A program made the translations under genes and the position numbers. From an uncultured Candidatus Saccharibacteria bacterium (GTDB lineage Bacteria; Patescibacteriota; Minisyncoccia; Phycocordibacterales; JAKAEA01), in the NCBI GenBank assembly GCA_964577595.1, contig CAZNZK010000001.1:208144-272143 (forward strand): a stretch of 64,000 nucleotides of DNA. The letters run 5' to 3'. Below are positions 18,320 to 50,418 of this stretch, piece after piece (position 1 is the stretch's first letter; each line of letters opens with the position of its first letter). Under the pieces are notes generated by a model that worked only from the letters and a program-made list of their open reading frames with translations, ran no database searches and was not told the DNA's origin.

Positions 18320-19831
18320 ATGTCATTAATTCGCAAAGCTAAAAAGCTCCGTGTGCTCTTTGTTGCCCCTGAGGCAGCCCCCTTCATTAAAGTAGGGGGT
18401 CTCGGAGAGGTTTTTCGTGCCCTGCCAAAATCATTGCGGGCGCTCGGTTGTGATGCTCGCGTTATTATCCCCCGCTATGCCGCCATTCCGGCTGAAAAAT
18501 TTCCAATGGACGTGCTTATCGCCGGCTTGAGCGTCTCAAGCGGCCCAGCCGGTAAGGAAATAATTTGCAATATTAAACAGCACATCGACGCCGACGGTAC
18601 CCCCACCTATTTTTTAGAAAATCAAGAATATTACGAACAGCGTGGCAGTGTCTATGGTTACGATGATGACGCCGCCCGCTGGGCGCTTCTGGCTCGAGGC
18701 ACACTAGAATTTGTACGTCGCAATGAAGACTGGCGACCCGATGTTATTGTGGGTGCCGACTGGCAAGGTGGTCTTTTGCCCGACCTCATAAAAACAACTT
18801 ACAAGGACGATCCTGTCCTTTCAAAAATCGCTACGGTCTTTTCCATTCACAATCTTTACTTCCAAGGAATGTTCAACCACCGCTTTGTGAACGATATGGA
18901 TTTTGACGACGGTAAATCCCCTATTCCTGATATCACCGATCCAAATCTCCTTAAAAAAACCAACTTCATGCGCCGCGGTATCCGCTATGCTGATGCTATC
19001 AATACCGTTTCGCCCACCTACGCCAAGGAAATTACCACCCCCGACTACGGCGAGCTTATGGACAACATCCTCTCCGAACGCCGCTCGCGCCTTTTCGGTA
19101 TTTTAAACGGCATTGACTACAATTATTGTAATCCACAAACAAATCCCAACGTCGTCCATAAATACAGCGCCAAAGATTTGAGCAATCGCGCAAAAAATAA
19201 AGCCGTTCTTCAGGAAAAATTCAACTTGGAGAAGGACCCGACCATGCCTGTTATCGGCATCGTTTCGCGTCTTAATGACCAAAAGGGCTTTGATCTCTTG
19301 GTGGATATGCTTGAGCCGCTCCTGGCCAATTGCCGCTTCCAACTGGTGGTGGTTGGCACAGGCGAAAGTAAATTCCTTTCGTTCTTCACTGAAATAGATA
19401 AAAAATATCCTCAGGTAGCTACTCATCTCTCTTTTGACGCCGATTTGCCCCACGTCGTATATGCTGGCGCCGACATTATTTTGATCCCGTCAAAATTTGA
19501 ACCGTGCGGCCTGACGCAAATGGAAGCGATGCGCTATGGCGCCCTACCCCTTGTGCGCAAAACCGGCGGCTTAGCCGACAGCGTAGAAAATTACAACCCC
19601 GCTACACAAACAGGCACCGGCTTCGTCTTTGAAAAATTTGATAAATATGAATTTTTTGTGGCTATTGTCCGCGCCTTGGAAAACTACAAATATCCGGGAG
19701 CCTGGGAAAAAACCCAAAAACGCGCCATGTCACAGAATTTTTCTTGGGACGAATCAGCTCAAAAATATTTTGATCTATTCAAGAAAGCTATTGGTTTTAA
19801 ACAGGAAGTAAAGCAGGAAGACAACCAATAA
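18320..19831 (+). CDS. glgA: Glycogen/starch synthase (ADP-glucose type, GT5).
   Basis: N-terminal FVAPEAAPFIKVGGLGEV. C-terminal GT-B motifs PSKFEPCGLTQMEAMRYGALP. Confidence 0.85.
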   Translation: MSLIRKAKKLRVLFVAPEAAPFIKVGGLGEVFRALPKSLRALGCDARVIIPRYAAIPAEKFPMDVLIAGLSVSSGPAGKEIICNIKQHIDADGTPTYFLENQEYYEQRGSVYGYDDDAARWALLARGTLEFVRRNEDWRPDVIVGADWQGGLLPDLIKTTYKDDPVLSKIATVFSIHNLYFQGMFNHRFVNDMDFDDGKSPIPDITDPNLLKKTNFMRRGIRYADAINTVSPTYAKEITTPDYGELMDNILSERRSRLFGILNGIDYNYCNPQTNPNVVHKYSAKDLSNRAKNKAVLQEKFNLEKDPTMPVIGIVSRLNDQKGFDLLVDMLEPLLANCRFQLVVVGTGESKFLSFFTEIDKKYPQVATHLSFDADLPHVVYAGADIILIPSKFEPCGLTQMEAMRYGALPLVRKTGGLADSVENYNPATQTGTGFVFEKFDKYEFFVAIVRALENYKYPGAWEKTQKRAMSQNFSWDESAQKYFDLFKKAIGFKQEVKQEDNQ

Positions 19832-19835
19832 AAAA

Positions 19836-21332
19836 ATGCGCTGGGCAAACTTTTTACACCTCTACCAGCCCGCGGATCAACAGCCAGACATCCTAGAAGC
19901 GGTAGTTGTGCAATCCTACAGACCCCTCCTTCAACACATACAAGAAAATAAAAACGTCCGATTAACCTTGAACGTGACCGGCGCACTCTTGGAGCTTTTT
20001 GATAAATATGGTTACCGCGATCTCATTGAAATATTGCGAGAAGTGGGTAGGGAGGGGCGCGTAGAATTTACTGGTTCGGCAAAATACCACGCTCTACTCC
20101 CCTTCCTGGAAGAATCTGAAATTATTCGACAAATAAAAATAAACGACGAAACAATGCGCTTTTTTCTTGAGGATGCCTACATGCCAGTGGGCTTTTTTCC
20201 GCCGGAAATGGCATACAAAGAAGCACTCGCGCCAATTGTGGAAAAACTCGGCTTCAAGTGGATTATTTTAGACGAAATCGCCTTTAACGGACATGCTCAG
20301 GGGGTTGATTATACAAAACTCTATAAAATCACCGGTTCAAATTTGCACGTTTTTTTCCGCGAACGCAGGACGAGCAACCTTATCATGAGTGCAATGGTTC
20401 GCTCAGCCGATTCACTTCGGGAAACAATGAAGGCAGATCTGACGAGCGACCGCTATCTTATTACCGCCATGGATGGCGAAACATTTGGCCACCACCGACC
20501 GGGTCTTGAAAAGATGTTATTTGAGATTTTTTCTGCTCCCGACTTTAACTTTGTAACCATCTCTGATCTTTTAAAACACTATGCGGGCACAGAGGTTGGA
20601 GTTGCACCCATCCAATCAACATGGGCGTCAAGTCCACTGGATATTGAACGTAATGTTCAGTTTTTATCATGGCACGACCCTGTAAATATTATCCATGGCT
20701 GGCAATGGGAACTTTTATACTTAGCCCTCGCAGAAGTCCACACACTTCCACAAAATACTCCGGGCTACAACGAAATTCGAAAGAAATTAGACGTAGCCCT
20801 CGCAAGCGACCATCTTTGGTGGGCATCAGCCAAACCGTGGTGGAGTATTGAGATGATTGAAGATGGTGCCTTTCGACTCCTGGATACTCTCCGTTCAATT
20901 CCAGGCATAACCTCTGATAAAATCGCCTCGGCGAGCAATTTGTACGAACATATTGTTTCTACTGCCTTTCAATGGAAACGCTCCGGCAAAATTTATCAAA
21001 TGATGCAGGAGCAGGATTCGCGGATACGTATACCTTTCAAAGACCGAACGGTGGGTCAAGGCGGTGCTGAAGAGGGGGTCTATCACGCATTCATGGATAT
21101 GCTGAGCGATGTGGAAAAAAAAGCGGTTACAAAAAGAGAGTATGAAAAAGCTATTCTTTGGCGAGACGCTCGTTACAAACTTGAAAACAAGCTTGATATT
21201 TACGATACAGTAGCGGCTATTGATCTATTGCGGCTAGAAATCCCCAACGTTGATGTCGAGAAAATTATTGAACAATATAAAGAAAAATACCGCCACCTGC
21301 GCGGTGGCCAGCCTGAGCAGCGCGGCGCTTAA
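19836..21332 (+). CDS. Glycoside hydrolase family 57-like protein (alpha-glucan processing), adjacent to glgA.
   Basis: N-terminal FLHLYQP (the GH57 HQP-like motif). Size and position next to glgA with a 4-nt gap. Confidence 0.65.
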   Translation: MRWANFLHLYQPADQQPDILEAVVVQSYRPLLQHIQENKNVRLTLNVTGALLELFDKYGYRDLIEILREVGREGRVEFTGSAKYHALLPFLEESEIIRQIKINDETMRFFLEDAYMPVGFFPPEMAYKEALAPIVEKLGFKWIILDEIAFNGHAQGVDYTKLYKITGSNLHVFFRERRTSNLIMSAMVRSADSLRETMKADLTSDRYLITAMDGETFGHHRPGLEKMLFEIFSAPDFNFVTISDLLKHYAGTEVGVAPIQSTWASSPLDIERNVQFLSWHDPVNIIHGWQWELLYLALAEVHTLPQNTPGYNEIRKKLDVALASDHLWWASAKPWWSIEMIEDGAFRLLDTLRSIPGITSDKIASASNLYEHIVSTAFQWKRSGKIYQMMQEQDSRIRIPFKDRTVGQGGAEEGVYHAFMDMLSDVEKKAVTKREYEKAILWRDARYKLENKLDIYDTVAAIDLLRLEIPNVDVEKIIEQYKEKYRHLRGGQPEQRGA

Positions 21333-27909: not shown

Positions 27910-29640
27910 TTATTCGGCCTTCTGCTCTTCTATTGCCTCATCAACTTCGTCCAGGTCAACTTCAATCGCTTCCTTAATTTCTTTTTCAGCCTTCGTTAAA
28001 ATTCTATCGTGCCGTAGATTTTGGAGGATTTCCAAATGTTTTTCTAAGCGCTTCTTCAAAAGAAGTAGTACTTTTGAGGTGCCATCTTTGAGCAAGACAC
28101 TTCGTATCCTAATACCGCTCTCTGAATTGGCATGATGGCGGCCCAGGAAATATGCCGCGAGAAGAAGGACGATGAGAATGAGCAGGGCAATAATTCCGAA
28201 ATTAAGCGCCACAAACGTGTGCGAGCCAATAGTGATCAACAATTGCGATGTGGCTGTGGTGTAGAGACGCGCCGACGACACTTTTGCATTGCCGGAGCCG
28301 GCTTCGGCCCACACGGTGTAATCGCCAGCCGCCAACGGACTGGTTGCCACAGAAAAGCTGGAATCGGAACCAGAGGTTGTTTGTAGGGCAACTGGGTTGT
28401 CAAAATTATGCTTCACATTGATAGTGATAGTGGTATTGGGACTCTGCGCAACGCCGCTAATAAGAAGCGGCTGGTTCGCAGGAACAATTCTGGGCAATGC
28501 GCTAAGCTGTGGCACCAGAATGGCGGTGGCGTGGAAACTACCCGAGGCCGAAGCACTATTGCCCGCCCGGTCAACAGCCACCAATTTCACGGTGTTGTCA
28601 CCGGAGGCATCAAACGGCAGAGCATAACTGCCGCCCGCAAAGTCGGCAGCGGAAATCGTTTTTACCAAAGCATCATTTATATAAATATCGTAGTGGTCAA
28701 TGCCGGAGGTTATGTCCTGAACCTGAGCGCTCATAGTGAGCACTTTAGCAGTATCGTCATAAGAAAATACTGCGTTGTTTTCCTGCGGAGCGGTGGTGTC
28801 TATTCTGGCGATATACGTACTTACTGGCCCCCAAGCATTTTCGTTATGAGCGCGGATTTTGAAATACCAAACTCCGTCCGCCAAGTCGGTAACGGTTTTC
28901 TGAGTAGTGGCAGGATTATAAATAACGTGCGGCACGCCACTGGTTGTGTTATCAATCGTCGTTTGTACCTCATCTACGCCATCAGGAAGAACCCATTGGA
29001 ATTCTGGACTACTGTTGTTATACCATTGGTCCTGGTTAGGATGAGTAGGTGAAGAAATCTGTAGTGCGAGGGCATCGGAGGAAGTGGTTGGGGGCGGAGG
29101 CGTTGGAGCCACTGGCGCGACAGGCGCCACTGGCGTGGGAGCCGCGCTCGGCCCAATAGTAAGCGCCACCCCTTTTTGACCATTAAGAACATTGGTGCCC
29201 AAGCCGTCGTTGGCCCGCACCGCATCGTCACTAGAAAAAACCAAATTGGCCTGGCCGGCCTGTTTTGCCCTGACTAAAATAGCCACAACGGCGCCGCTTG
29301 CGCCAGTGTAGCCGGGAGTAGGCACTCCTCCATTAAACGTAATGGTGCCTGCCGTGTTTGAAAATGTCGGATTCTGCACCCACAAAGAGAAAATGGAACT
29401 TGCACTGTTTACCGAAACAACACTCAAGAGGGCCGCTGGAAAATTAATTGTTGCCTGCGCATTATTTATAGCTACGCCTTGAGAATCTACCGTCACTAAT
29501 AATGTGGCAGTGTCGCCCGGCGCGAGCGTTGTTACGTTTGAGGCAATTTGCAGAGTGGCGGCGTGCACGCTACCGTATCCTAAAAAGAATACGCCGAGCG
29601 AAATTAGTGCACTACCATATAGTATTTTATTTTTTAACAT
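27910..29640 (-). CDS. Membrane-anchored surface protein: signal peptide, cohesin-like domain, Ig/FN3-like domains, C-terminal TM helix and charged cytoplasmic coiled tail.
   Basis: The N-terminal domain (ATLQIASNVTTLAPGDTATLLVTVDS...ATINFPAALLSVVSV...ITFNGG...AILVRAKQAGQANLVF) follows the type-I cohesin pattern (PGDTV..V......YD...L......G..F......G.FATI.AKV). It is paralogous to the downstream gene. C-terminal TM IIALLILIVLLLAAYFL. Confidence 0.65.
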   Translation of the reverse strand: MLKNKILYGSALISLGVFFLGYGSVHAATLQIASNVTTLAPGDTATLLVTVDSQGVAINNAQATINFPAALLSVVSVNSASSIFSLWVQNPTFSNTAGTITFNGGVPTPGYTGASGAVVAILVRAKQAGQANLVFSSDDAVRANDGLGTNVLNGQKGVALTIGPSAAPTPVAPVAPVAPTPPPPTTSSDALALQISSPTHPNQDQWYNNSSPEFQWVLPDGVDEVQTTIDNTTSGVPHVIYNPATTQKTVTDLADGVWYFKIRAHNENAWGPVSTYIARIDTTAPQENNAVFSYDDTAKVLTMSAQVQDITSGIDHYDIYINDALVKTISAADFAGGSYALPFDASGDNTVKLVAVDRAGNSASASGSFHATAILVPQLSALPRIVPANQPLLISGVAQSPNTTITINVKHNFDNPVALQTTSGSDSSFSVATSPLAAGDYTVWAEAGSGNAKVSSARLYTTATSQLLITIGSHTFVALNFGIIALLILIVLLLAAYFLGRHHANSESGIRIRSVLLKDGTSKVLLLLKKRLEKHLEILQNLRHDRILTKAEKEIKEAIEVDLDEVDEAIEEQKAE

Positions 29641-30292
29641 ACTTTTTGTAGCGGAACCAAAGAGCCACGCTTACCAAGCAGAGCACACCAACGGCCGATA
29701 GTAGAATAAGTATATCATTTTGCTCATGGGCAGATTGGGGAGATGTTTGGCTTGTAGCGTTAGTGGTTGGCAAAGGCACAACAATTCCCGGGCTCTGCCG
29801 ATTAACCGCAATGGCGATCGGCTGAGCCGTGACGTTCTCCTCGGTGCCCTGTCCATTATTAAGATAGACCGCGCCATTAGTTAACGACATTTGCACTGTG
29901 CCCGCCACGGCGGGTTTAATGCGCAAGCGAAAAAGGAGACCCTCGTGGTTAAACCCTCCGGGAATGCCGCCCGTAAAACTCACACTCGCCGTATCTGGGC
30001 TGTAATGGGGGGAAGTAGGCCAGAGACTTAAAAGAGACTTAGCTGTATCCGCCTCAACTGAAAGCTGGTCGCCGGCTATCCCCCCAAAATCAACAGAACC
30101 CTGTACGACGTTGAGATTTTGCGATTGAGGATCAACGCGAACTTCAACGATAGTGGCGGTATCTCCTGACACGGTATTCGGTACGACATTGAAAGTGATA
30201 AGAGCGGCCCGCGCGTCATGTGGCGAAACAAGTGCGCACAAGGCCGCAATTCCGATTACAAAAAAAGAAAAAAGTGAGTTACGCATGGTCAT
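29627..30292 (-). CDS. Membrane-anchored cohesin-like domain protein (signal peptide, single cohesin-like domain, C-terminal TM anchor).
   Basis: ALITFNVVPNTVSGDTATIVEVRVDP...VSFTGGIPGG...LLFRLRIKPAVAGTVQMSL cohesin-like pattern. C-terminal TM ILILLSAVGVLCLVSVALWF plus KKYVKK. Confidence 0.65.
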   Translation of the reverse strand: MTMRNSLFSFFVIGIAALCALVSPHDARAALITFNVVPNTVSGDTATIVEVRVDPQSQNLNVVQGSVDFGGIAGDQLSVEADTAKSLLSLWPTSPHYSPDTASVSFTGGIPGGFNHEGLLFRLRIKPAVAGTVQMSLTNGAVYLNNGQGTEENVTAQPIAIAVNRQSPGIVVPLPTTNATSQTSPQSAHEQNDILILLSAVGVLCLVSVALWFRYKKYVKK

Positions 30293-30298
30293 ACAACG

Positions 30299-33200
30299 TT
30301 AGTCTTTTAGCGCAAGGGCTGTGTCTGTCCATTCATAGAGCATAATTGAAAAGTCTATGGAATCGACCTTGTTGTCGTGGTTAATATCTACCGAAGAATT
30401 TTTATATGGAGCCTTTGTTCCCCAAAATGCCAGGAGGATGGAGAAATCAATCGCGTCTACTCTGCCATCATGGTTAAAGTCGGATGTTGTCAATTTAGAA
30501 TTCACTAAATTAGGAGTGGCGACTACCAGGTTGCCCCCTCCACCTCCTCCCCCTCCTCCACCGCCACCTCCACCACCTCCTCCCCCGCCGCCATTAGTAG
30601 AAACGGGAGCGGTTGCGGTGAATGACTGGTCGGCCGTAGAAAAGCTGGAGCCAAATTGGACATTTAAATGAAACCAATAATTTCCGGCATTTGGCACCGT
30701 GGAATTGAGCGTTGTGTCAAAATTTTGACCGGGCTGGATAAGCTTGGCATTCTGGCCGTCAAAAATGTCGGCGCTACCGCACGAGCCCACCTCTGAACTG
30801 GTGACGCACCAGTTATATGTGTATTCAGATTGGGCCTGGCCTTCGTTGGTTATTCTAATCGCCGTGGAAATATTCGGAGTGGTTAGGCTCGGGAAACTCT
30901 GGATGAGGACTTGCGCTGGCGAGCCCGGCGTCGCGCTTACCACACCAGAAGGTGTGCCTTGATTGATGGCATTTTTAGCAATCACTCGGAAATTATACGC
31001 AACGTCGTTGGAAAGGCTCGTCACTGTTGTGGCAGGCGTAGTTCCTACTCCATCATCAAATATGGCCCAGGTGCCACCCGTAGCTAATTCGTATTCAACA
31101 ATGTAGTCGGCGATTGAGGAGCCCCCATCAGAAACGGGCGCTGACCAAGAAAGACCAATGCTACTGTCGGCGACTGTGGCTGTGAGGTTTTGCGGCGCGC
31201 TTGGAATACTTGCGGGCGTAATGGAGTTACTTGTTCCCGATGATGTACTCGTGCCTTCCGCGTTAGTGGCGCTAACGGTAAATGTATATGGTGTGCCGTT
31301 AGTGAGGCCGGTGACCGTGGCTACCGTAGAACCGCTCATGGCACTATGCAAGCCATCGTTGGAAGTAACCGTGTAATACAGGATGGTTGAGCCGCCGTTG
31401 AACGACGGGGCCGACCACGAAACAGTGGCGCTCGTATCGCCGGTCACGGCCGCAACGTTGGTCGGAGCGTTTGGAACGGTCGCCGGCGTTGTTGCGTTGC
31501 TGGAGAGTGAGGAGGTGCTTGTGCCAACCGAGTTCGTGGCAGTCACCGTAAAGGTGTAAGTGGTGCCGTTAATGAGGCCAGTGACGGTGATGGGCGAAGC
31601 GCCGCCCGAAGCAGTGTGACCATCGTTGGAAGTAACGGTGTATGAGGTGACCGTGGCGCCGCCAGTATTGCTTGGCGGAGTGAAGGTGACCGTGGCATTG
31701 CCATTTCCGCTAGTGGCAGTGACGCTCGTCGGCGCGTCGGGAACAGTAGCAGGCACGACTGAATTACTTGTACCTGAGGACGTACTGGTTCCAACAGCGT
31801 TGCTGGCGGTGACCGTGAACGTGTAGGTGGTGCCATTAGTGAGGCCGGTGATTGTTATAGGCGACGAGCCACCGGTTGCGGTGAATCCTCCGACATTTGA
31901 AGAAACCGTGTATGTCGTGATGGCCGAGCCGCCAGTGTTGCCAGGCGCTGTGAAAGTAATTGTGGCTTGGCCGTTGCCACCGGTGGCTGTGCCGATCGTC
32001 GGCGCATTCGGAATGGTAGCCGGCGTTACTGAATTAGTGGTGGCTGAAGGCGTGCTCGTACCAGCTGAGTTTGAGGCGGTCACCGTAAACGTATACGTGG
32101 TGCCATTAGTGAGGCCGGTGATTGTTATAGGCGAGGAACCACCCGTTGCCGTGTGCCCGTCGTTGGAAGTGACGGTGTAGTAAGAAATCGTGGATCCCCC
32201 ATTATTTCCGGGAGCCGAGAACGTGATAGTGGCTTGGCCATTTCCTCCGGTTGCCGTGCCAACAGAAGGCGCATTCGGAACTGTGGCCGGAGTGACCGAG
32301 CCACTAGCAGACGAGGCAGTGCTCGTGCCTGCAGAATTGGTGGCGGTAACCGTGAACGTGTATGCAGTGCCGTTGGTAAGGCCGGTGACGGTGATTGGAG
32401 ATGAACCGCCATTTGCCGTGTGGCCGTCGTTTGAGGTAACCGTATAGGTAGTGATTACGGAGCCACCGTTATTTCCGGGCGCGGTGAATGTGACGAGCAC
32501 CTGACCATTACCGCTCGTGACCGAACCGATTGTGGGCGCATCAGGAATAGTCGCTGAAGTGACTGAATTACTGGTGGCCGAAGCGGTACTCGTGCCCACG
32601 GAGTTGGTCGCGGTAACCGTGAACGTGTAGGTCGTGCCGTTGGTGAGGCCGGTCACCGTAATCGGCGAGGAACCGCCGGTTGCGCTGTGGCCGTCGTTAG
32701 AAGTGACGGTGTAGTACGAAATTGTTGCCCCTCCATTATTTCCGGGAGCCGAGAACGTGATGGTAGCCTGACCATTGCCGGAAGTGGCGGTACCTATGCT
32801 TGGAGCATTAGGAACAGTAGCTGGCGTGGCCGAATTAGAAGCGCTTGAAGCCGTACTCGTACCAGCGGAGTTGGAAGCCGTCACCGTAAAAGTATACGAC
32901 GTGCCGTTGGTGAGGCCGGTCACCGTAATCGGCGAGGAACCACCCGTTGCGCTGTGGCCGTCGTTGGAACTAACCGTGTAATAAGAAACGCTCGCGCCGC
33001 CGTTATTTCCGGGAGCCGTAAACGCGACGGTGACCTGACCATTTCCGGCAGTGGCGGGGCCAATTGTCGGCGCGTCGGGAACCGTTGCTGGCGTAACTGA
33101 ATTACTTGCGGCGGAAACAGTGCTTGTTCCTACTCCGTTGGTAGCCGTTACGGTAAATGTGTATGTAATACCGTTGGTGAGGCCGGTCACCGTAATCGGC

Positions 33201-36200
33201 GAGGAACCGCCCGTTGCGCTGTGGCCATCGTTTGAGGTGACGGTATAATACGAAATTGTTGAGCCGCCATAATTTACCGGTCCGGAGAAAGAGATTGTGG
33301 CCTCGCCAGGACTTTGTGTTGCCGTGCCAATGGTTGGAGCGTCAGGAACAGTCGCTGGCGTCACTGAATTTGAAACCGAAGAAGCGGTGCTTGTGCCGGC
33401 CGCATTCGTGGCAGTCACCGTAAACGTATAGGTGGTGCCATTCGTCAGGCCAGTAATTGTTACGGGCGAAGAACCGCCCGTGGCAGTGTGACCATCGTTG
33501 GAACTAACTGTGTAATAAGAAACTGTGGCCCCTCCATTATTTCCGGGAGCCGTAAAAGTAATGGTTGCTTGCCCGTTTCCGGAAGTAGCCGTGCCGATAG
33601 TTGGCGCATTCGGAGCCATGGCAGGAGTGACCGAGTTAGTCACGCTGGAAGCAGTGCTGGTACCCACGGCATTACTTGCTGAGACGGTGAATGTGTAGGT
33701 CGTACCGTTAGTGAGGCCGGTTATTGTTATAGGTGACGAACCGCCCGTGGCAGTGTGACCGTCATTAGAAGTGACAGTATATGAAGCCACAGTGGCTCCC
33801 CCATTATTTCCGAGTGTCGAGAACGAAATCGTGGCCTGCCCGTTTCCGCCAGCGGCAGTCACACCGCTAGGAGCATCTGGAACTGTAGCTGGCGTAACTG
33901 AATTTGAAACGGAAGAAGATGTACTGGTGCCCACACTATTAGTAGCGGTAACTGTGAATGTGTAGGTTGTACCGTTACTTAGTCCCGTAATAGTAATTGG
34001 GGATGAACCGCCGGTTGCCGTAAATCCGCCAATGTTTGAACTGACTGTGTAATACGTAATTGTGGAGCCTCCATTATTTCCGGGGGCCGAGAAAGAAATG
34101 GTAGCCTGACCATTGCCGCCAGTGGCGGGCCCAATTGTCGGCGCGTCGGGAACCGTTGTCGGCGTCACTGAATTTGAAACTGAAGAAGCTGTACTTGTGC
34201 CAACCGCGTTCGTAGCGGTCACCGTAAACGTATAGACCACACCATTAGTGAGGCCGGTCACCGTAATCGGCGAGGAACCGCCGGTTGCGCTGTGGCCGTC
34301 GTTGGAAGTGACGGTGTAGTACGAAATTGTTGAGCCGCCATAATTTACCGGTCTGGAGAAAGAGATTGTGGCTTCGCCAGGAGCTTCTGTTGCCGTTCCG
34401 ATGGTTGGAGCGTCAGGCGTCGTGGCCGGCACGACTGAACCGCTTGTGCCAGAAGGAGTACTTGTGCCAGCACCATTGGTCGCGGTCACCGTGAATGTGT
34501 AGGTCGCGCCGTTGGTGAGACCGGTAATGGTGATTGGTGAATTACCACCCGTCGCGGTGTGCGGTACGTCGGTCAGGGAATTGGAAGTGACGGTGTAATA
34601 GGTGATATTTGAACCATTGTTATTTGGCGCAGTGAACGTGACGGTGGCTTGGCCAGTGCCAGCAGTGGCAGAGACATTAGTTGGAAAATCTGGAGCCGCG
34701 GCGGGCATGACCGAATTACTTGTTCCCGATGAGGTGCTGGTGCCCACCGCATTGGTCGCGGTCACCGTAAACGTGTAGGTCGCGCCGTTGGTGAGACCGG
34801 TAATGGTGATTGGCGAATTACCACCCATCATAGTATGCGGTACATCGCTCAAGGAACTTGAGGTAACCGTGTAATACGAAATTGTTGAGCCGCCGTAATT
34901 TACCGGCCCGGAGAAAGAGATTGTGGCTTCACCAGGAGCTTCTGTTGCTGTTCCAATAGTTGGCGCGTCTGGAATGCTAATAGGTGTGACCGAATTACTT
35001 GTTCCCGATGAGGTGCTGGTGCCCACCGCATTGGTCGCGGTCACCGTAAACGTGTAGGTCGCGCCGTTGGTGAGACCGGTAATGGTGATTGGTGAAGTGC
35101 CACCAGTCGCGGTGTGCGGTACGTCGGTCATGGAGTTGGAAGTGACGGTGTAATACGAAATTGTTGAGCCGTTATTGGCTGGCGCGGTGAAGGTGACAGT
35201 GGCCTCGCCAGGACTTTGTGTTGCCGTTCCGATCGTCGGCGCGTCAGGAGAGGTAGCCGGCATGACCGAATTACTTGTTCCCGATGAGGTGCTGGTGCCC
35301 ACCGCATTGGTCGCGGTCACCGTAAACGTATAGACCACACCATTAGTGAGGCCGGTCACCGTAATCGGCGAGGAACCGCCGGTTGCGCTGTGGCCATCGT
35401 TTGAGGTAACCGTGTAGTACGAAATTGTTGAGCCGCCATAATTTACTGGTCCGGAGAAAGAGATTGTGGCTTCACCAGGAGCTTCTGTTGCTGTTCCAAT
35501 AGTTGGCGCGTCTGGAATGCTAATAGGTGTGACCGAATTACTCGATAACGAAGCACTGCTTGTGCCGATGCTATTTGTCGCGGTGACGGTGAAATAATAC
35601 GTTAGACCATTCGTAAGGCCCGTAATAACTATGGGCGATGCCCCACCAGTAATGCTATGCAAACCATCAGTAGAAGTGACGGTGTATGAAGTTATCGTCG
35701 AATAGCCATCATTAACGGGTGCGGTAAAAGTAACAATGGCTTCGCCAGGAGCTTCTGTCGCCGTTCCAATGATTGGCGCGTCCGGAGCGGTAGCGGGAGT
35801 GATTGGGAGTGAGGAAAGTGAGGGAGTGCTTGTTCCTACGCCGTTTGTCGCAGTGACGGTGAAGGTGTAGGTTGAGCCGTAGGTCAAGCCACTAATAGTT
35901 ATCGGTGAAGTGCCTCCACTCATAGTATGCGGAACATCACTCGTGGAATTGGAGGTTACGGTGTAGTACGAAATAGTGGAGCCGTTGCTGTTTGGATATG
36001 AAAAAGTAATCGTGGCTCCATCATCATTTCTGACTGCCGAAATAATTATCGGTTGGTCGGGAACGGTAGCTGGCATCACTGAAAGACTCGAACCTGAAGC
36101 GGTGCTCGTGCCAACCGAGTTGGTAGCAGTAACAGAGAAAGTGTACGTCGCGCCGTTAATCAAACCACCGATAGTGATGGGCGAAGCGCCTCCACTCATG

Positions 36201-39200
36201 GTATGCGGAGTATCACCCAAGGAGCTGGACGTCACGGTGTAGTACGAAATTGCGGAACCATTGTTGGCCGGTGTAGTGAACGTAATAGTAGCTGTGCCAG
36301 GACCCCCAGTAGCGGAGGTGATGACGGGAGCGTCTGGAGCAATAGCTGGCATCACGGAACCACTCGTGTTTGACATGGTACTGGTACCAACGCCATTGGT
36401 CGCAGTAACGGTGAACGTGTAGTTAACACCATTAGTAAGATTAATAATTGTAATTGGTGATGAGCCGCCGTACGCCGTGTCACCGTAATTAGAGGTGACG
36501 GTGTAATACGAAATAGTGGAGCCGTTATTGGCCGGTGTAGTAAAAGTGATGGTTGCCGAACCGGGGCCGCCAGTAGCGGAGGTGATGACGGGAGCGTCTG
36601 GAGTTGTGGCGGGCATAACAGAACCACTAGTGTTTGACATGGTGCTTGTGCCAGCAGAATTCGTGGCCGTCACCGTGAACGTGTAGTTAATACCATTGGT
36701 GAGATTGGTAATTGTAATTGGCGACGAACCACCGATTGCCGTGTCACCGTAATTAGAGGTGACGGTGTAATACGAAATAGTGGAGCCGTTATTGGCCGGT
36801 GTAGTAAAAGTGATGGTTGCCGAACCGGGGCCGCCAGTAGCGGAGGTGATGACGGGAGCATCGGGAACGGTGGCCGGCATCACGGAGTTGCTCGTGACCG
36901 AAGCCGTGCTGGTGCCGGTGGCATTAGTTGCTGTTACGGTAAAAGTGTATAGGACGCCATTAGTTAGGCCATAGATCGTAATTGGTGAATTACTGCCGGT
37001 TATTGTATGTGACACGTCGGCTAAAGAACTGGAAGTGACGGTGTAATAAGTGATAGCAGAACCACCAAGATTAGTCGGCGCTGTGAAAGTGATGGTAGCT
37101 TGGCCATTACCACCAACCGCGACAACGTTCGTCGGCGACCCTGAAACAGTTTGATAATCAAGATACGCATAAGTAGAGCTCGGAACAATATCCCAAATTG
37201 GCGTGGCAAAATCCCAGTTGGAATATGTGGCGAGCAACATCATTGAGTTGTTACTCTCGCTGTTCATACCGGAAGGATCCACAGCACCAGTGCCAAGACC
37301 GTTGTTGTGGAGCTTTCCAGAAGTGTCCGTATCCCAATAATCGGAAACATAGGTGCCGCCAGCACTGCCGGTCATACCGCCGACGTTGCGTACTCCCACC
37401 GTAGTACCATTCGCGCCGGCGCTACCGGTGCCACCCGCTCCACTACCGGTGCCAGTAGCACCACCCGCACCACCGAGAGCGGCAAGAGTGCTTGTGCCTG
37501 AAGGCGCGCCAATTGAATACGCGTTCGTAACCGTTGCAGTGTTGCTACCCATCAGGCCGCCGATGTATGCATTACCGCCGTTGCCGCCAGTGCCACCATT
37601 CAAACCGGCGCCAGCGGTACCCAATGTACTTCCGCCACCTTTAGCACCACCGGCGCCACCCTGGCCACCGTTGCCGCCTTTAGCGGCCAGGCCAGCAGTT
37701 GAGCTCGCGGTTCCTAATGCATAGGCATTAGTGATAGTTCCCGTATTTGTGCCGATTAAACCTCCGGCATACACATCACCGCCCGCGCCACCGTTGCCGC
37801 CGTTAGAACCATTCGTGGCCGGGCCACCGTTGCCGGTAGCGCCGGAGCCACCAACACCACCGTTGCCTCCTATGCCGCCAGTGGCGCCAACAATTCCATT
37901 GCCTCCAATCACCTTCACATTACCGGAAGCATAACTGGTGCTAATACTACCCGTTGAAATATTTCCGCCAACGAGCCCGCCGCCGTAGCTGAAGCCGCCA
38001 GTACCACCATTACCCTCTGTTACCACGCCACCACCAGTACCGCCAATGCCACCGCCACCTGTTCCGCCATTGCCACCAGTGCCAGCTACCCCAGCAAGAC
38101 CAGCCGCGCCACCGTTGCCGCCAACAATGGTAACGTTCCCCGCCGACCAGGAATATTGAATTATGCCCGCGGTGTAGTTATAACCGACTAGTCCCCCAGC
38201 GTAGGCCGCGCCGCCGTTGCCAGCCGCGGCAGTTGCTCCTTCTGCGCCACCCGTGCCACCAGCACCCGTTGCGCCGCCGTTGCCACCGACGCCACCTATA
38301 CCACCCGCGCCTCCGGCACCGCCGGTTGAACCATTAGCATTTACTGCTCCGATAGCATATGTCGTATATAAAGTACCTAAGTTATAGCCAGTAAAGCCTC
38401 CGGCATACGTGATACCGCCGTTAGTACCAGCGGTTCTACCCCCTGCCTGACCACCATTACTACCGTTGCTTGCGGAAGCGGCTGTGGTGGTACCTATACC
38501 ACCAGTGCCGCCAGCACCGCCAGCACCGCCAGCACCAGCAGTCGCCGTTACTGTTCCTAATGCATAAGAATCTTTAATAATCATGCCGGTAAAATTTTCT
38601 CCGGCAAAACCACCACCATAGACGATGCCAGCTGTGCCTGCGGCACCACCTGTTCCTCCAACGCCACCCTGGCCACCCACACCAACCGTGCCAACAAAAC
38701 CAGAAACGCCATTGCCACCAACACCGCCAGTACCGCCAGTGCCAGCAGTACCTGTGGCGTTATTAGTTGAATAAGAGTTGATCTCAATAAAACCATCGTT
38801 ATAACCAACAAAACCTCCTATATATAGAGCACCTCCCACGGCATTCGTGGCAGCAGAACCGCCGGTACCACCGCCACCGCCGATACCAACACTTCCAGCC
38901 GCGCCGCCGGTGCCGCCAGTACCTCCCGTGCCGCCGTTGCCGGCAATTCCAGTAACCGTTTGCCCAATAGCATAACTGGTGAGCGTTGTGTTTGTCGTGT
39001 CAATATTATTTCCAATCAGACCGCCGACATATGCCGCGCCGCCGGCGCCGGAAGCGCCTCCGTTGCCGCCCAATCCTCCCGCATGACCACCGACTCCCAA
39101 CGAGCCGTCACCACCCGTGCCGCCGTTACCGCCGGCGGCACCGTTGTTACCTATTGCCGTAACAGAACCGGCCGCGTACGAACTAATAATGACACCGTTG

Positions 39201-42200
39201 GCCGCGTTGTTAGCAACAAGGCCACCAGCATAAGCAACACCAGCGTTTCCACCGACGCCGCCCACGCCACCAGAAGCGGCCGTACCACCTGAAAGTGCTC
39301 CGCCAGTAGCGCCGCCCGTGCCACCAACGCCAGCCGTGCCCGCAGTGCCGCTAGTTGACGTGGCATTCCCTGTTGCATACGAAGTGTTTTCAATAATACC
39401 GGCGTTGGAACCGATTAATCCTCCCGCATAACTCGTGCCACCAGTGCTGGAAGTGCCACCAGTGCCGCCCGTGCCACCCTTGTTCAAAGATCCACCAAGA
39501 CCGCCAATAACCCCAGTAACTCCATTACCCGAAGAGCCGCCCGTGGCCACAACATTCTCGGTGGAATGACTACCAATAATAGAGAGATCCGTGTTTGCAC
39601 TCGCGCTTGTTTGGCCTATTAAGCCTCCGGCATAAGCGTTGCCACCAGCACCACTCGTACCACCAGCGAGCGTCCCGCCACCGGCAAATGCACCAGCACC
39701 GGCTCCAGAATATCCAGCACTACCACCCTGGCCGCCCTGACCACCCTTTGCTGAGACAATATTAGTTGTAGAGGTTGCGGCGGAATTCTGATAATTGCCA
39801 GTTCCACTTGTGACACTGCTGTACCCTACCAAGCCACCAGCATCAGCTTCACCACCTGCACCGCCGTTGCCGCCGACGCCACCGTTACCGCCAAGGGAAC
39901 TTCCTGTGCTACTGGCTGCATTACCGCCAACGTTTCCAATACTGCCAATTCCTCCAGTTGAACTGGCAAAACCAATCGCAAATGAATTTATAAAATTATT
40001 AATGCCGGTAGTGAACCTATTATTACCGATTAAACCTCCGGCGTAAGCGTTGCCACCCACGGCAGCCGCGACCGCGGCGGGACCGCTCACTCCAGTTACT
40101 GTTGTAGTTGAAAGACCGGCACTACCTGAAGAACCGGCCGTGCCGGCATTTCCTCCTAATGCTGAAACGTTGCCGAGAGCATAATCATTTAAAAAGTTGC
40201 CTGTGCCGGCTGCAAAACTACTGAAGCCTACGAGGCCACCAGCATCGGCTTCACCACCGACCCCAGCCACGCCGCCCAAAGCACCAGTCGATCCCACGTG
40301 CCCCGTTGTGCCATAAAAACCACTACCGCCGTTGCCACCAGTGCCACCGTTGCCACCGTTGCCGCCGACAATCGAGACTGTTCCAGTCGCGTAAGAATTT
40401 ACGACCTGGATAGTAAGTGCCGCTCCAGAAATAGTTCCTACTAAGCCACCGCCAAACACAACACCACCAGCTCCGCCTATTCCACCTGGAAACCCAGCAG
40501 CCGCCGTTCCACTTGAGGTTGTTGTTCCGGAAGTACCACCAGCGCCACCGTTGCCGCCAAGACCGCCGTTGCCACCCGTCATAAAAATAGTAACTAAAGA
40601 ATATGACGACTGCTGAATGACGCCCAAATCGTTACCGATAAGCCCTCCGAATTCTAACGTCCCAGAGTTGCCACCGTTGCCACCGATGAGTCCGACACCG
40701 CCGACGCTACTGCCAGCTCCCGCGCCACCATTGCCGCCGTTGCCACCAATACCGCCAGTTTGCTCAACACCCGTGATTGTCAGAGATTGCGAATACGAAG
40801 AAGAAACTGTTGCGGAACTATAGCCTAATAGTCCGCCAACAATAGCACCGTTTGTTGCCCCTCCGACAGCAGCTGTTGTACCGCCGACACCGCCGACACC
40901 GCCACTCACAACCGCCGAGCCGCCGTTGCCGGCATTACCGGCATTACCAGTGCCGCCGGTATTAATATAAATATTTCCCGCTCCGGAAATCGGATCAACA
41001 CTCGTCCACGAAGCAACGACGTCTGCCACCGTATAGCCCGCCAATCCACCAGCATATACAATTCCGGAAGCGCCACCAGCGCCGGCGTTAGAGCCAGCCG
41101 CTCCTCTATTAGCAACTCCACTAATACCGTTTGATCCATTTTGACCGGAGCCTCCGGCAATGTTAAGAGTTGTTTCGGAATACGATCCGTTCACTACGCC
41201 AGTACTGTAACCTACGAGCCCACCGGCATATACTGACCCGCCAGCGCCACCGGCACCGCCAGCGCCGGCAAGACCGCTCAAGCCGGTACCAGTTCCAATG
41301 CCACCTGTGCCTCCCTGAACAGATGCCCCACCGGCACCACCAGTAGCAGTGACCGTTCCCGACACGGCATACGAGTTGCTAATAGTCCCCGTTATATTTT
41401 GTCCGACGAGACCGCCGGCTTGCACTGCTGTTGCTGGTGGGCCAACACCGCTGGCACCAGGACCGCCCGCTCCACCGACGCCGCCAATGCCACCAGTTTG
41501 GTTGACACCGGCAGAACCATCACCGGCATTACCACCAATGCCACCCTGGCCGCCAATGCCACCAGTGGTTGAAGCATTCGCCATCGCATACGAATTATTA
41601 ATAATCGCTCCGGCTCCGGTATTTATTCCCACCAAACCACCAATGTTGACCGCGCCACCCGTGCCACCAAGGAATCCGGCACCGCCAGCTGCTGTGGTTG
41701 AGGCGGATAAAAATGCCCCGGAAGCGCCAGCGTTGCCGCCCGCACCACCAATACCACCGCTACCAACATTCGCCGTTACCATACCGAGAATATGATAGTC
41801 ATATTGCAGAGTACCTGAATTTGATCCAATCAAACCGCCGGTATAATTAACGCCACCGTTGTTGCCAGCTACCCCGTTGCCGCCAATGCCGCCTATAAAC
41901 TGGCCGTTACCGGCACCGCCAATACCTCCGGAACCGCTGTTGCCACCATTTCCTGAAGTTCCCGTAACAGCTCCGGTAGAATATGAACTGTCAATTTCGC
42001 CGGAAGTCACGAATCCAACCAGACCTCCCACGTAGACCGTGCCACCGAGACCGCCGGCAATTCCGGTGCCACCGTTGCCACCTGGATTATTAGCCCCAAG
42101 TCCACCCTTACCACCGTTACCTCCAATGCCAGCGTTACCAGCGGAGATGGAAACGGTTCCGGTGGCATAGGCATTACTGATAAAAATATTTGTGTTGGTA

Positions 42201-45200
42201 AATCCTACCAATCCTCCACCGTAAGCAAAACCTCCTGCGCCGCCACCGGCGCCGTTGCCGCCGTTGCCGCCCGACATTGTGGTTGTGGCGGTTGTGGTAC
42301 CGTCTCCACCTAAGGCACCGAAACTTCCCGTTCCACCAACCTGCCCTATAACTAAAATATTTCCCGTGGAAGAGGCGTTGCTAATAGTATCTCCGGTACC
42401 GCCAATATATCCAAAAAGACCGCCGACATATGTATAGGAACTGGCTGCGCCACCGGCACCACCCGCGCCGCCGTTGCCGCCCAAAGCTCCAACAGTTCCG
42501 TTAATCGCTGTACCACCGGTGCCACCCGTGCCGCCCGTCGCGTAAACATTGCTCGTTGAATAAACAGCATTAAATAAAAGATCATTGGTAGTATTGTTGT
42601 AGCCGGCGATACCTCCAACGTACACCGCCCCGGTTATACCACCACCACCGCCAGTACCGCCGGTGCCATTTCTACCTCCCAACCCACCAGCCGGACCGCC
42701 CGTGCCGCCCGTTCCACCCGTGCCACCGCCCGCGCCCAAAACCGCATTGATAGTTCCATTCTGGCTATTTGATGACAAAATATCTCCGTTGTCTTGACCG
42801 GCTAAACCTCCCATATATAGAGCACCACCGGTGCCACCCGTGCCGCCGGCACCGGCCGCACCACCGCTATGACCGTTGAGTCCTAATGTTCCATCACCAC
42901 CGTTTCCTCCTTGGCCAGCAGCAGCACCGGGTGTTCCATCTGCCGTCATACTGCCAACCACTATCACTGAAGAATTTATAATGACTCCCGGATTATCACC
43001 GGTAAGTCCTCCTATATATGTAGCGCCACCAACGCCGCCGTTGCCACCAGTGTTACCAGCACCTCCTGTGCCGCCAATAGCAGCACCGGAAGCTCCAGCC
43101 TTACCACCCGTGCCGCCAGCACCGGCCGTACCGCCATTAACTGAAATAGTAGTAACGGTGTACGTAACGCCACTAATGATACCCGTATTTGAACCGGTCA
43201 CCCCACCACCATACGCCGCGCCGCCGTTGCCGCCCGCACCACCAATGCCACCGGCACCACCGATAAATCCTGAGGTGCTTGTGGCATTTCCTCCGGCGCC
43301 ACCAGTACCACCATAACCTCCGAGGCCCCCAGTTGAATAAATTCCTCCCGTATTATTTGCCGTGCCTATTGTTGATCCAGCAACGCCGTTCCAAGCAACA
43401 ACACCACCAACATAGGTGGCCCCACCGTTGCCGCCAAGACCACCAACAACAGCGGCTTCGGATACTCCGTTGATACCCGTTCCGCTCGTGCCGCCATTTC
43501 CAGCATTACCGCCATAACCGCCGGTGCCACCGGTTGATGTAGCATTCCCCATCGCATAAGAATCAACACCCACCAACCCCAAGTTGTTTGCTATCAAACC
43601 ACCCGAGTAACTCGCGCCGCCCGTGCCGCCAGCACCGCCAATGTTGCCGGCACCACCGACAACTCCACCACCGGAGGAATTACCACCATTAGCGCCGGGA
43701 GCACCAGGAGCGCCAGTGCCGCCGGTTGAGCTTGCTGTCCCTAGTGCATATGAAAAATTTTGAACAATACCGTTGGCGCTGTTTTGCCCCAGCAAACCTC
43801 CGGCGTAGGCAGGGCCGCCAGCACGAGCAGTAATCAAAGCGCCAGTATCAAGCGCGCCGTTGGCACCGCCAGCCATACCAGTTGACCCACTACCACCAAG
43901 ACCGCCGGAACCAGGCGCGCCACCAGTACCACCGAGCGCGGAAACATTTCCTGTCGCATACGAATGATCAATAACGCCCGTGCTCAGCGCTACTAAACCC
44001 CCAGCGTAAGCGGTTCCGCCAAGACCACCGATCGCGCCGCCAGTGCCACCAGTGGCTCCAACGCCACCAGCACCGCCAGTGCCACCGTTTCCAGCATTGC
44101 CCGCTACTGATGTTACCGTCGCGGCGGCATAAGAATTTGCTTGAATAAAACCAGCTACGTTATTTCCCACCCCACCACCTGCATATGAAAACGCTCCCAG
44201 GCCTCCGGTGCCACCAGTGCCGCCGGCACCACCAAGAGCCCCACTGCCACCAATACCGCCGGCACCGCCGGTAGCTCCGTTGCCACCAGAACCAGCGGTA
44301 GCGGTTACGGAACCGGCAGAGATATATGAATTGGTAATTGTTGAAGAGTTGTATCCGGCAATACCTCCGCCATAAGCCGCGGCTCCGGCACCACCCGTAC
44401 CGCCCTGCACTCCGGAAGCGCCAACTTGACTCGCGCCTCCCGTAGAACCATTACCGGCTGCTCCGGCAGCTGCTCCGGGTTGGCCAGAAACTGAAAGAGC
44501 AATAACCGTGGTTGACGCGGTTGAGCTGGCAATAATAGTGGTGTTATATCCCACCAATCCACCAGCGTAAGCAATAGCACCAGTACCACCAGTACCGCCA
44601 GTGCCACCCGCCGCGGCAGTAGCAGCAATAGTTCCGGTAGTGGTGCCGGCCCCGCCACCCGCGCCACCTAAACCAGGAATACCTGAGGTTGACGTGACAT
44701 TTCCAATAAAATTATTTCCACCCTGGACGATGCCGGCACTATCTCCAATAAGCCCGCCGGCGTAAGATACGCCGGCAGTGCCGCCCGTTCCACCACTGCC
44801 ACCGACACCGCCGATAGAGTTGGTACCGCCAGCTCCGCCACTGCCACCATTGCCAGCATTGCCACCCTGACCACCGTTCGCAATTATGGATCCAGTTGAT
44901 GAGGCTGTTGTTACTGTGCCGGCAACAAAGTTTCCGATTACTCCTCCACTGAAGGCGTTGCCACCCGTGCCGCCGCCAAGACCACCCAGCCCGGCGCCGC
45001 CGGTAGTTGACGTTGCCGTTCCACCAGCTCCGCCATTACCACCAACGCCACCCGCGCCGCCGTTCGCGGTTATGGTGCCAATTGAATATGAACTTAGAAT
45101 ATCTCCGTTATTTTGATCACCGACAACTCCGCCAACATATGCAACACCGCCAGTTAAGCCGGCGCTACCAGCAACACCGGACGTGCTCGTCGTTCCCACA

Positions 45201-49738: not shown

Positions 49739-50323
49739 TTAGCTAACGAGCACCGCCGTCACCACAAGACGATCGTTATAGGTACCGGTCTGCGGCAAAT
49801 AGGTGCCATAGCAGGTAATAATTTTAAGAAGCGGCTGGCCGCTGTCGGCGAAAATCTGGCCGCTGGGAAAAGCGCTGACGCTGTAAATATCGAGAGAAGT
49901 AACTTTAAAATGAGAGACGCCACCAAGCACATTGGTTACGTAAATATCGTCGCCAGCAACCAGGGTGTGGAGATTTTTAAAAACGCCGGGAATAGCGGCA
50001 CCGTTATCAACGTGGCCGTCAATTACCGCACTGCCTATGCCGCCAACCACGGGCCCACGGTCATACCAACCGGCCTGCACGAAATTGTGTGGCACATCAA
50101 GTGCACCAGCCGGAGTAATATCAACAGGCACAATTGAAGCCCGCTTGCCAATTTGCGGAATGAAAAGCGAGGCCGGAGCGCCGGCTACGGGCCCGATAGT
50201 AGCCGGCGTATTTTGGGCATAAGCCGGAGAAATGGTTAGAAAAAAGCCGCCGAAAGCCACGGATGTGGTAACGACGAGCACAAGTGAAGTGCGAGCGATA
50301 CTGGCGCGAAATGAAAGTTGCAT
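49739..50323 (-). CDS. Sortase-family transpeptidase (class E/F-like) with an N-terminal TM.
   Basis: His region GSAVIDGHVD. Catalytic-Cys context LLKIITCYG (TLxTC-like). Followed by conserved R (NDRLVV). Confidence 0.7.
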   Translation of the reverse strand: MQLSFRASIARTSLVLVVTTSVAFGGFFLTISPAYAQNTPATIGPVAGAPASLFIPQIGKRASIVPVDITPAGALDVPHNFVQAGWYDRGPVVGGIGSAVIDGHVDNGAAIPGVFKNLHTLVAGDDIYVTNVLGGVSHFKVTSLDIYSVSAFPSGQIFADSGQPLLKIITCYGTYLPQTGTYNDRLVVTAVLVS

Positions 50324-50418
50324 AAGAGTTGAAATATGGCTTAAATAAAAGGTTTTTAAACGAATACAAAGATATTTTAGCACGAAAAAATAGGTGTGTA
50401 AAGGGCTTCGGTTCGAAA

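Follow-up and report, generated by a model that had tools for sequence, protein, structure and literature searches.

Here, we describe a three-gene locus in a 64,000-nucleotide (nt) stretch of DNA, called the window below, which corresponds to positions 208,144-272,143 of contig CAZNZK010000001.1 and to which all coordinates refer. On the minus strand of the window, three open reading frames (ORFs) follow one another head to tail, in the order giant cargo gene (30299..48850; 6183 amino acids, aa), gene B (29627..30292; 221 aa), and gene A (27910..29640; 576 aa). The giant protein has a predicted dockerin at its C terminus, and each of the two smaller proteins has a predicted cohesin-type domain ahead of a transmembrane (TM) helix. 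When family-built profiles were run over the 64-kb window, a single dockerin and just two cohesin modules were found, and the three are adjacent.

RESULTS

The three genes are tightly spaced. A first-pass annotation of this DNA had reported that two genes on the same strand follow the giant gene with a 6-nt gap and then a 14-nt overlap, and the ORFs and their coordinates bear this out. The stop codon of the giant gene (30299-30301) is separated from the ATG of B (30292) by 6 nt, in the same reading frame. The end of B overlaps the ATG of A (29640) by 14 nt, an overlap that is valid if the upstream ATG, and with it the longer N terminus, is taken for A. Public gene calls (P0001, 552 aa) place the start of A at an internal GTG 24 codons later and lose the signal peptide (29563..29640, minus strand). 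The longer N terminus, which also gives rise to the 14-nt overlap with B, is kept in orthologues. Moreover, no terminator-like site was seen on the coding strand between the giant gene, B, and A.

The giant protein ends in a dockerin. Residues 6107-6183 (30302..30532, minus strand) contain two EF-hand-like calcium loops, DFNHDGRVDAID and DINHDNKVDSID, and a DFSI(L/M)L helix comes after each; the C terminus as a whole reads ...DFNHDGRVDAIDFSILL...DINHDNKVDSIDFSIML... following a run of 23 glycines. The loop-helix units DFNHDGRVDAID-FSILLAFW and DINHDNKVDSID-FSIMLYEW have the canonical duplicated layout of a dockerin, in which we take the Ca2+ ligands to be D or N at positions 1, 3, 5, 9, and 12 of each 12-residue loop. 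The Pfam family Dockerin_1 (PF00404) matched the isolated last 77 residues at 55.2 bits against a cutoff of 22.9 bits (E = 8e-15), in agreement with the duplicated calcium-binding, dockerin-like segment that the first-pass annotation had placed at the end of the giant protein, and it matched at 44.8 bits within a 499-aa fragment of the same protein. The pattern D.N.D..V.S.DFSI.L..W is kept in both halves of 72 orthologous dockerins, and the two halves are equally conserved. We conclude that the C-terminal domain of the giant protein is, by its sequence profile, a member of the PF00404 dockerins.

Protein A is a membrane protein with a cohesin at its N terminus. From N to C terminus, A consists of a signal peptide, a cohesin, a proline/threonine (P/T) linker, three immunoglobulin (Ig)-like domains, a TM helix, and a conserved cytoplasmic helical hairpin. 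An AlphaFold (AF2) model of the full-length protein had a mean predicted local distance difference test score (pLDDT) of 81.6 and showed a signal helix at residues 5-20, the cohesin at residues 28-162, and a disordered P/T linker at residues 167-188. The cohesin domain, taken as residues 27-165 (29146..29562, minus strand), contains the motifs PGDTATLLVTV and ITFNGG. Cohesin was not reported when full-length A was searched against Pfam and NCBIfam. When residues 27-165 were searched alone, the Pfam Cohesin family (PF00963) matched at 26.6 bits against a cutoff of 24.1 bits (E = 7.5e-6). That profile is passed by 11 of the 61 A-family members and by several A orthologues at 45-50% identity. The modeled domain has the nine-stranded beta jelly-roll of solved cohesins, with no helix in the model, and its best fold matches are the type I cohesins 1g1k and 6kgf, with types II and III scoring nearly equally. 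Thus, the A domain is a member of PF00963 as judged by profile and predicted fold.

How A is held in the membrane differs in part from what had been described. The three Ig-like/FN3-like domains of the stalk (28249..29073, minus strand; residues 190-282, 286-371, and 385-464) are beta-sandwich domains with weak similarities to Big_13, OmpL47-barrel, and DUF7743. They are followed by the TM helix (28129..28224, minus strand; residues 473-504), for which hydropathy peaked at 3.07 over residues 471-504 and the AF2 helix begins at residue 473. A cytoplasmic tail of 72 residues comes next (27913..28128, minus strand; residues 505-576), with AF2 helices at residues 521-545 and 550-575 and no match in Pfam. 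In 32 homologues, R546 of the tail is invariant and eight positions are conserved at 90% or above. The first-pass annotation had each cohesin protein tethered by a C-terminal TM helix, and TM helices are indeed present in both A and B, but that of A is not C terminal. A is not a simple C-terminal anchor, because a conserved cytoplasmic domain follows the helix, and a passive anchor would not need such a tail.

Protein B is shorter, and its cohesin-like domain is diverged from that of A. B has a signal peptide (residues 1-29), a diverged cohesin-like domain (residues 29-168), a linker of about 25 residues, a TM helix (residues 191-215), and a KKYVKK tail, and hydropathy indicates that A and B are both single-pass membrane proteins. 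The cohesin-like domain (29789..30208, minus strand) scored 121.9 bits with the family profile and contains the motifs SGDTATIVEVRV and VSFTGG; all of the cohesin motifs quoted by the first-pass annotation are present in A and B. By BLASTP, the B domain is 32% identical to the A cohesin (E = 1e-10), and when the two families were compared by hhalign, they aligned with a probability of 99.9% (E = 1.6e-31), the alignment taking in 135 of 139 columns. We conclude from these comparisons that the B domain is a diverged homologue of the A cohesin over its full length, from which it would take its fold.

The arrangement of the three genes is conserved across many lineages. Relatives of A were found in 436 stretches of a species-representative genome collection (one genome per species), and the gene-order counts below come from the best 80 of them. 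A metagenomic protein collection held more than 440 A homologues, of which the few that are named belong to Candidatus Paceibacterota/Parcubacteria, and one A homologue has already been named "cohesin domain-containing protein" by NCBI. With the isolated cohesin domain, 4,940 cluster representatives were found at E <= 1e-3. According to the titles of their records, the best 80 loci come from Patescibacteria (Paceibacterota, Falkow-, Nomura-, Wolfe-, Taylor-, Zambryski-, Adler-, and Gribaldobacteria, and others), with the exception of two metagenome-assembled genomes (MAGs). We note that the two MAG contigs, L028 (CAYMIJ010000029.1) and L077 (CAYFZV010000006.1), are labeled Flavobacteriaceae and Gammaproteobacteria, respectively, and each has a complete cassette; they are probably misbinned.

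Dockerin and cohesin-domain profiles were searched against the 80 loci in all six frames, the dockerins being recovered with a home-built hidden Markov model (HMM), as the 77-aa dockerin, used as the query of a word-indexed search for homologues, returned one match only. A dockerin-ended ORF, a B-type gene, and an A-type gene followed one another on one strand in 72 of the 80 loci. Six of the other eight are cut by the end of a contig, and the full order was present in 65 of the 67 loci that have at least 1.5 kb of upstream sequence. The dockerin lies at the very end of its ORF (median of 1 residue to the stop codon), and no dockerin was found on the opposite strand in any locus. Moreover, the dockerins of distant cassettes are independently matched by Pfam. 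At one of the loci, L017, a second cohesin gene, which is B-like and encodes 575 aa, lies downstream.

The protein that carries the dockerin is variable. Orthologous giants of 5194 and 5301 aa have the same terminal small module, polyglycine run, and dockerin as the giant protein of the window. In many more distant cassettes, the dockerin ORF is just 344-1500 aa and contains MG2-like domains. Thus, cargo size ranges from a few hundred to more than 5000 aa while the dockerin, B, and A are constant, which is the behavior expected of a modular plug and socket. The cargo lengths in other loci were measured from stop to stop, and breaks in the assembly may divide larger genes, as happened in L003. 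In a second assembly of the organism of the window (ENA ERZ27245386 k141_101130), the contig stops inside the giant gene, where a protein of only 1581 aa was called. Public assemblies routinely cut short giant genes that are rich in repeats, and therefore cargo sizes elsewhere are uncertain.

A and B might be alternative receptors rather than partners. Each would then be used independently, with the dockerin docked either on B near the membrane or on A atop its stalk, and the first-pass annotation had proposed such alternative anchors of different heights or states. The spacing to the TM helix does differ, about 25 residues in B as opposed to the P/T linker and three Ig-like domains in A, and the two dockerin halves are near identical, as in dockerins with dual binding modes. 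Paralogues used in that way are expected to come and go independently, however, whereas every cassette with sufficient sequence has both B and A, and the two genes usually overlap and have fused more than once. Fusions of B to A were found in at least three genomes (L023, positions 1076-3541; L076, positions 5104-7707; and P0087) and also in P0132, P0133, P0139, and P0206, and the fused proteins are about 810-870 aa in several genomes. Among the best 150 of the 4,940 cluster representatives, about ten are two-domain proteins of 600-870 aa. The fusions keep the TM helix of B and the signal segment of A as a membrane hairpin between the two cohesins, and therefore both cohesins stay outside the cell. 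Finally, the A and B cohesin profiles share 24% identity by hhalign, such that the cohesin surfaces are strongly different while the dockerin halves are nearly identical. Alternative receptors thus fit the data poorly, and we consider them unlikely. Because A and B are found together in the cassettes, overlap translationally, and have recurrently fused into one polypeptide, we read them as an obligate pair.

The cohesin of A is most conserved where a dockerin would be expected to bind. Mean pairwise distance was 0.38 for the dockerin, 0.46 for the A cohesin, 0.67 for the B cohesin, and 0.70 for the rest of A. The 8-3-6-5 sheet is the dockerin-binding face in solved cohesin-dockerin complexes, and within the A cohesin, conservation was highest in strands 5 (0.87), 8 (0.85), 6 (0.75), and 3 (0.70) and lower in strands 1, 2, 7, and 9 (0.46-0.60), where strand numbers were mapped onto A by order. 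A conserved dockerin-cohesin interface is supported by the standing of the dockerin and the A cohesin as the two most conserved modules, by the high conservation of the canonical binding face within the A cohesin, and by the equal conservation of the two dockerin halves.

The same observations bear on the possibility that neither cohesin, that of A or that of B, binds this dockerin at all. A and B could form a separate envelope complex, with the dockerin binding glycans of the host or of the cell's own wall or a cohesin encoded elsewhere, and the genes could be adjacent simply because their products share a surface structure. If the modules were not direct partners, however, it would be difficult to see why the same ones remain adjacent throughout while the cargo changes. 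Moreover, the dockerin is always at the extreme C terminus, adjoining the cohesin genes, and the face of the A cohesin that is most conserved is the canonical dockerin-binding one. A separate complex therefore seems to us improbable, and slightly more so than the alternative receptors.

The giant protein is built largely of repeats. Its domain order is a signal peptide, a T/S-rich region, an unannotated head, Gly-rich repeats, 23 FN3 domains, a Cys-containing module, a polyglycine linker, and the dockerin. Hydropathy found a single hydrophobic segment, at residues 5-32, which we read as a signal peptide; the predicted Sec signal peptide (48758..48850, minus strand; residues 1-31) ends ...FFPLRSLA/DD, with the cleavage site placed by eye. 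Residues 33-190 are rich in T, S, D, and P and are followed by a 450-residue region without annotation. The Gly-rich repeat region (37361..46930, minus strand; residues 641-3830) is 35% Gly and consists of about 48 units of about 66 aa, with 39 matches to the motif Y[AV]GGL[VI]G at a median spacing of 66 aa, and it matched no Pfam family at E <= 0.01. We note that the Gly-rich repeats also produce a sharp excursion in GC skew (-0.2 to -0.26) at 38-46 kb.

The FN3 array (30926..37150, minus strand; residues 3901-5975) is likely a stalk. It comprises 23 domains that match Pfam fn3 (E = 6.5e-172) and appears at the DNA level as tandem repeats of 264-276 nt. A small module follows (30605..30925, minus strand; residues 5976-6082) that had no match in a Pfam scan and is kept in the orthologous giants of loci L003 and L004, and its Cys 6015 and Cys 6024 are the only two extracytoplasmic cysteines. 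Finally, a polyglycine linker (30533..30604, minus strand; residues 6083-6106) leads, by its sequence, into the dockerin, and the Gly run varies in length among orthologues, with 23 residues in the window, 12 in L003, and 7 in L004.

The domain content also speaks to whether the locus is a cellulosome-like device that displays enzymes for polysaccharide degradation. Cohesin and dockerin are the hallmark modules of cellulosomes, FN3 domains occur in some cellulases, and there was a weak NCBIfam match to CbhB. Pfam scans detected no glycoside hydrolase, carbohydrate-binding module (CBM), or S-layer homology (SLH) domain in the giant protein, A, or B, however. Each cohesin protein has one cohesin, with no multicohesin scaffoldin, the window contains one dockerin only in 64 kb, and the hosts are Patescibacteria with reduced genomes. 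A cellulosome was rejected, as no domain of a carbohydrate-active enzyme and no CBM was found in the Pfam scans of the three proteins, and we regard enzyme display for polysaccharide degradation as very improbable.

Sortase anchoring was considered because, 888 nt upstream of the giant gene and in the same orientation, there is a sortase-family gene (49739..50383, minus strand; Pfam Sortase, E = 8.5e-18). No conserved LPXTG motif was found in the giant protein, A, or B, with none of any kind in A, and an SLH match was likewise absent. B has the sequence LPTTN 17 residues before its TM helix, and the sequence is absent from B homologues. Sortase anchoring was ruled out on the absence of a conserved LPXTG.

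The remaining genes of note lie elsewhere in the window. A DEAD-box helicase gene convergent with A ends 21 nt past it. Next to a tRNA gene on the minus strand (4592..4665) are genes for a Phage_CRI-type replication protein (2074..3126) and a large serine recombinase (3137..4618), and the region from 2074 to 4665 looks like a small element integrated at the tRNA. Adjacent genes for a GT5 starch/glycogen synthase and a GH57 protein (18320..21332, plus strand) point to glycogen-type storage metabolism and are unrelated to the cassette.

DISCUSSION

Here, we propose that the giant gene, B, and A form a conserved three-gene cohesin-dockerin cassette for surface anchoring in the ultra-small Patescibacteria, also called the candidate phyla radiation (CPR), that is noncellulosomal and unrelated to cellulose degradation. 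We consider the proposal likely. The first-pass annotation had likewise seen a noncellulosomal set in which a giant dockerin protein is encoded together with two membrane cohesin proteins, and HMM matches, the predicted fold of A, the homology of B, and the conserved gene order all agree with it. From synteny and the conserved canonical binding face, we infer that the dockerin binds A and/or B; the association of A with B and the role of the fiber are proposed in the same spirit.

How the parts might work together can be outlined. The giant protein would be exported through Sec, and its N-terminal part, the Gly-rich repeats, and the shaft of 23 FN3 domains would point away from the cell. The Ca2+-binding dockerin, set off from the shaft by the flexible polyglycine linker, would plug noncovalently into one or both cohesins. 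A is likely the main receptor, with its cohesin lifted off the membrane by the P/T linker and three Ig-like domains and with the protein fixed by a TM helix that bears the conserved cytoplasmic hairpin. B, the short and more diverged cohesin protein, would be the membrane partner of A. The outcome would be a fiber of about 100 nm with its C terminus tethered to the cytoplasmic membrane and its N-terminal region distal. The fiber plausibly serves in attachment to a host cell or surface, a role that we propose because of the analogy with fibrillar adhesins and the epibiotic lifestyle of cultivated Patescibacteria.

Several observations weigh against the cassette as we propose it. The first-pass annotation had named PF00963 as the profile by which to check both anchor proteins, and while the A domain passes in isolation, B never does, as neither full-length B nor its isolated domain matched Pfam Cohesin at E <= 10, and NCBIfam likewise gave no cohesin for full-length B. 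Moreover, no cohesin was found among PDB sequences, whether the query was A, B, the A domain, or a profile of 32 sequences. The family is thus remote from characterized cohesins, and A is linked to the solved ones by the Pfam profile and by fold rather than by PDB sequence matches. Two loci, L016 and L017, have an A-type gene and more than 5 kb of upstream sequence with neither B nor a dockerin there. In a mirror-tree comparison, the partial correlations of the dockerin with the cohesins of A and B were weak (0.23-0.30), and covariation between dockerin and cohesin is not expected because the interface residues are nearly invariant. Finally, the A and B cohesins are predicted to stand at different heights above the membrane, which makes simultaneous binding of one 70-residue dockerin by both awkward. 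On the other side, HMM support, the lack of which the first-pass annotation would have held against its own reading, was found for both the dockerin and the A domain.

Perhaps the two cohesins do more than hold the fiber. We speculate that A and B could form a heteromeric transmembrane receptor in which each cohesin clamps one half of the dockerin and the hairpin of A couples fiber engagement or tension to the cell interior. The chance of this seems small to us. If true, however, the heteromer would be a CPR-specific mechanosensing or signaling adhesin anchor instead of a passive tether.

The proposed cassette resembles the anchoring scaffoldins of cellulosomes, such as ScaE of Ruminococcus flavefaciens and SdbA, OlpB, OlpA, and OlpC of Clostridium thermocellum, in that one or more cell-bound cohesins would hold a large secreted protein by its C-terminal dockerin. 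In R. flavefaciens, moreover, the gene for the anchor ScaE is clustered with those of dockerin-bearing partners (the sca cluster, with ScaB and CttA). Among the best fold matches of the A cohesin were 4dh2, 3ul4, 4uyp, and 2zf9, solved cohesins of the anchoring-scaffoldin kind. The likeness has limits, however. The cargo here is a repeat fiber whereas theirs is an enzyme-loaded scaffoldin, and the locus, in a CPR host, encodes two cohesin proteins that differ from each other, of which A has a conserved cytoplasmic domain. Classical anchoring scaffoldins are fixed to the wall via SLH modules or sortase and LPXTG (review, PMC12484212), whereas both anchors here use a TM helix and have no conserved LPXTG or SLH.

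The proposed cassette also resembles known noncellulosomal cohesin-dockerin connectors, such as the modules of NagJ, NagH, and sialidase in Clostridium perfringens and the cohesin of Archaeoglobus fulgidus. The pairs of C. perfringens and A. fulgidus serve to join soluble enzymes or lack a known cargo. To our knowledge, no known noncellulosomal pair is a conserved operon of a giant fiber and two single-pass membrane cohesin proteins. Giant extracellular proteins of the "dockerin-type" in Omnitrophota, which are likewise ultra-small bacteria, have dockerin-type Ca-binding repeats and a proposed role in attachment (West-Roberts et al. 2023, bioRxiv 10.1101/2023.11.21.568195). Those giants have many internal dockerin/thrombospondin repeats and a C-terminal TM anchor of their own, with no cohesin partner genes described, whereas here a single terminal dockerin is accompanied by two cohesin genes. 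The dockerin-domain protein SEML1_0315 of the saccharibacterium Southlakia epibionticum is reported to be among the essential envelope proteins (Wang et al. 2023, PMC10633639). This patescibacterial surface protein likewise has a dockerin, and a cohesin partner was not described for it. Full-text literature searches found no description of the present cassette in CPR. What would be new here is a mode of cohesin-dockerin anchoring that uses two distinct cohesins and a TM helix followed by a conserved cytoplasmic domain.

Patescibacteria account for much of the diversity among uncultured bacteria, and the cassette provides a testable architecture for how they may build their surface and attach to their hosts. 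In this architecture, a variable and often giant cargo would be held on a conserved pair of membrane cohesins via a terminal dockerin. As a compact and orthogonal plug and socket, the dockerin and cohesin may also be of use in engineering surface display.

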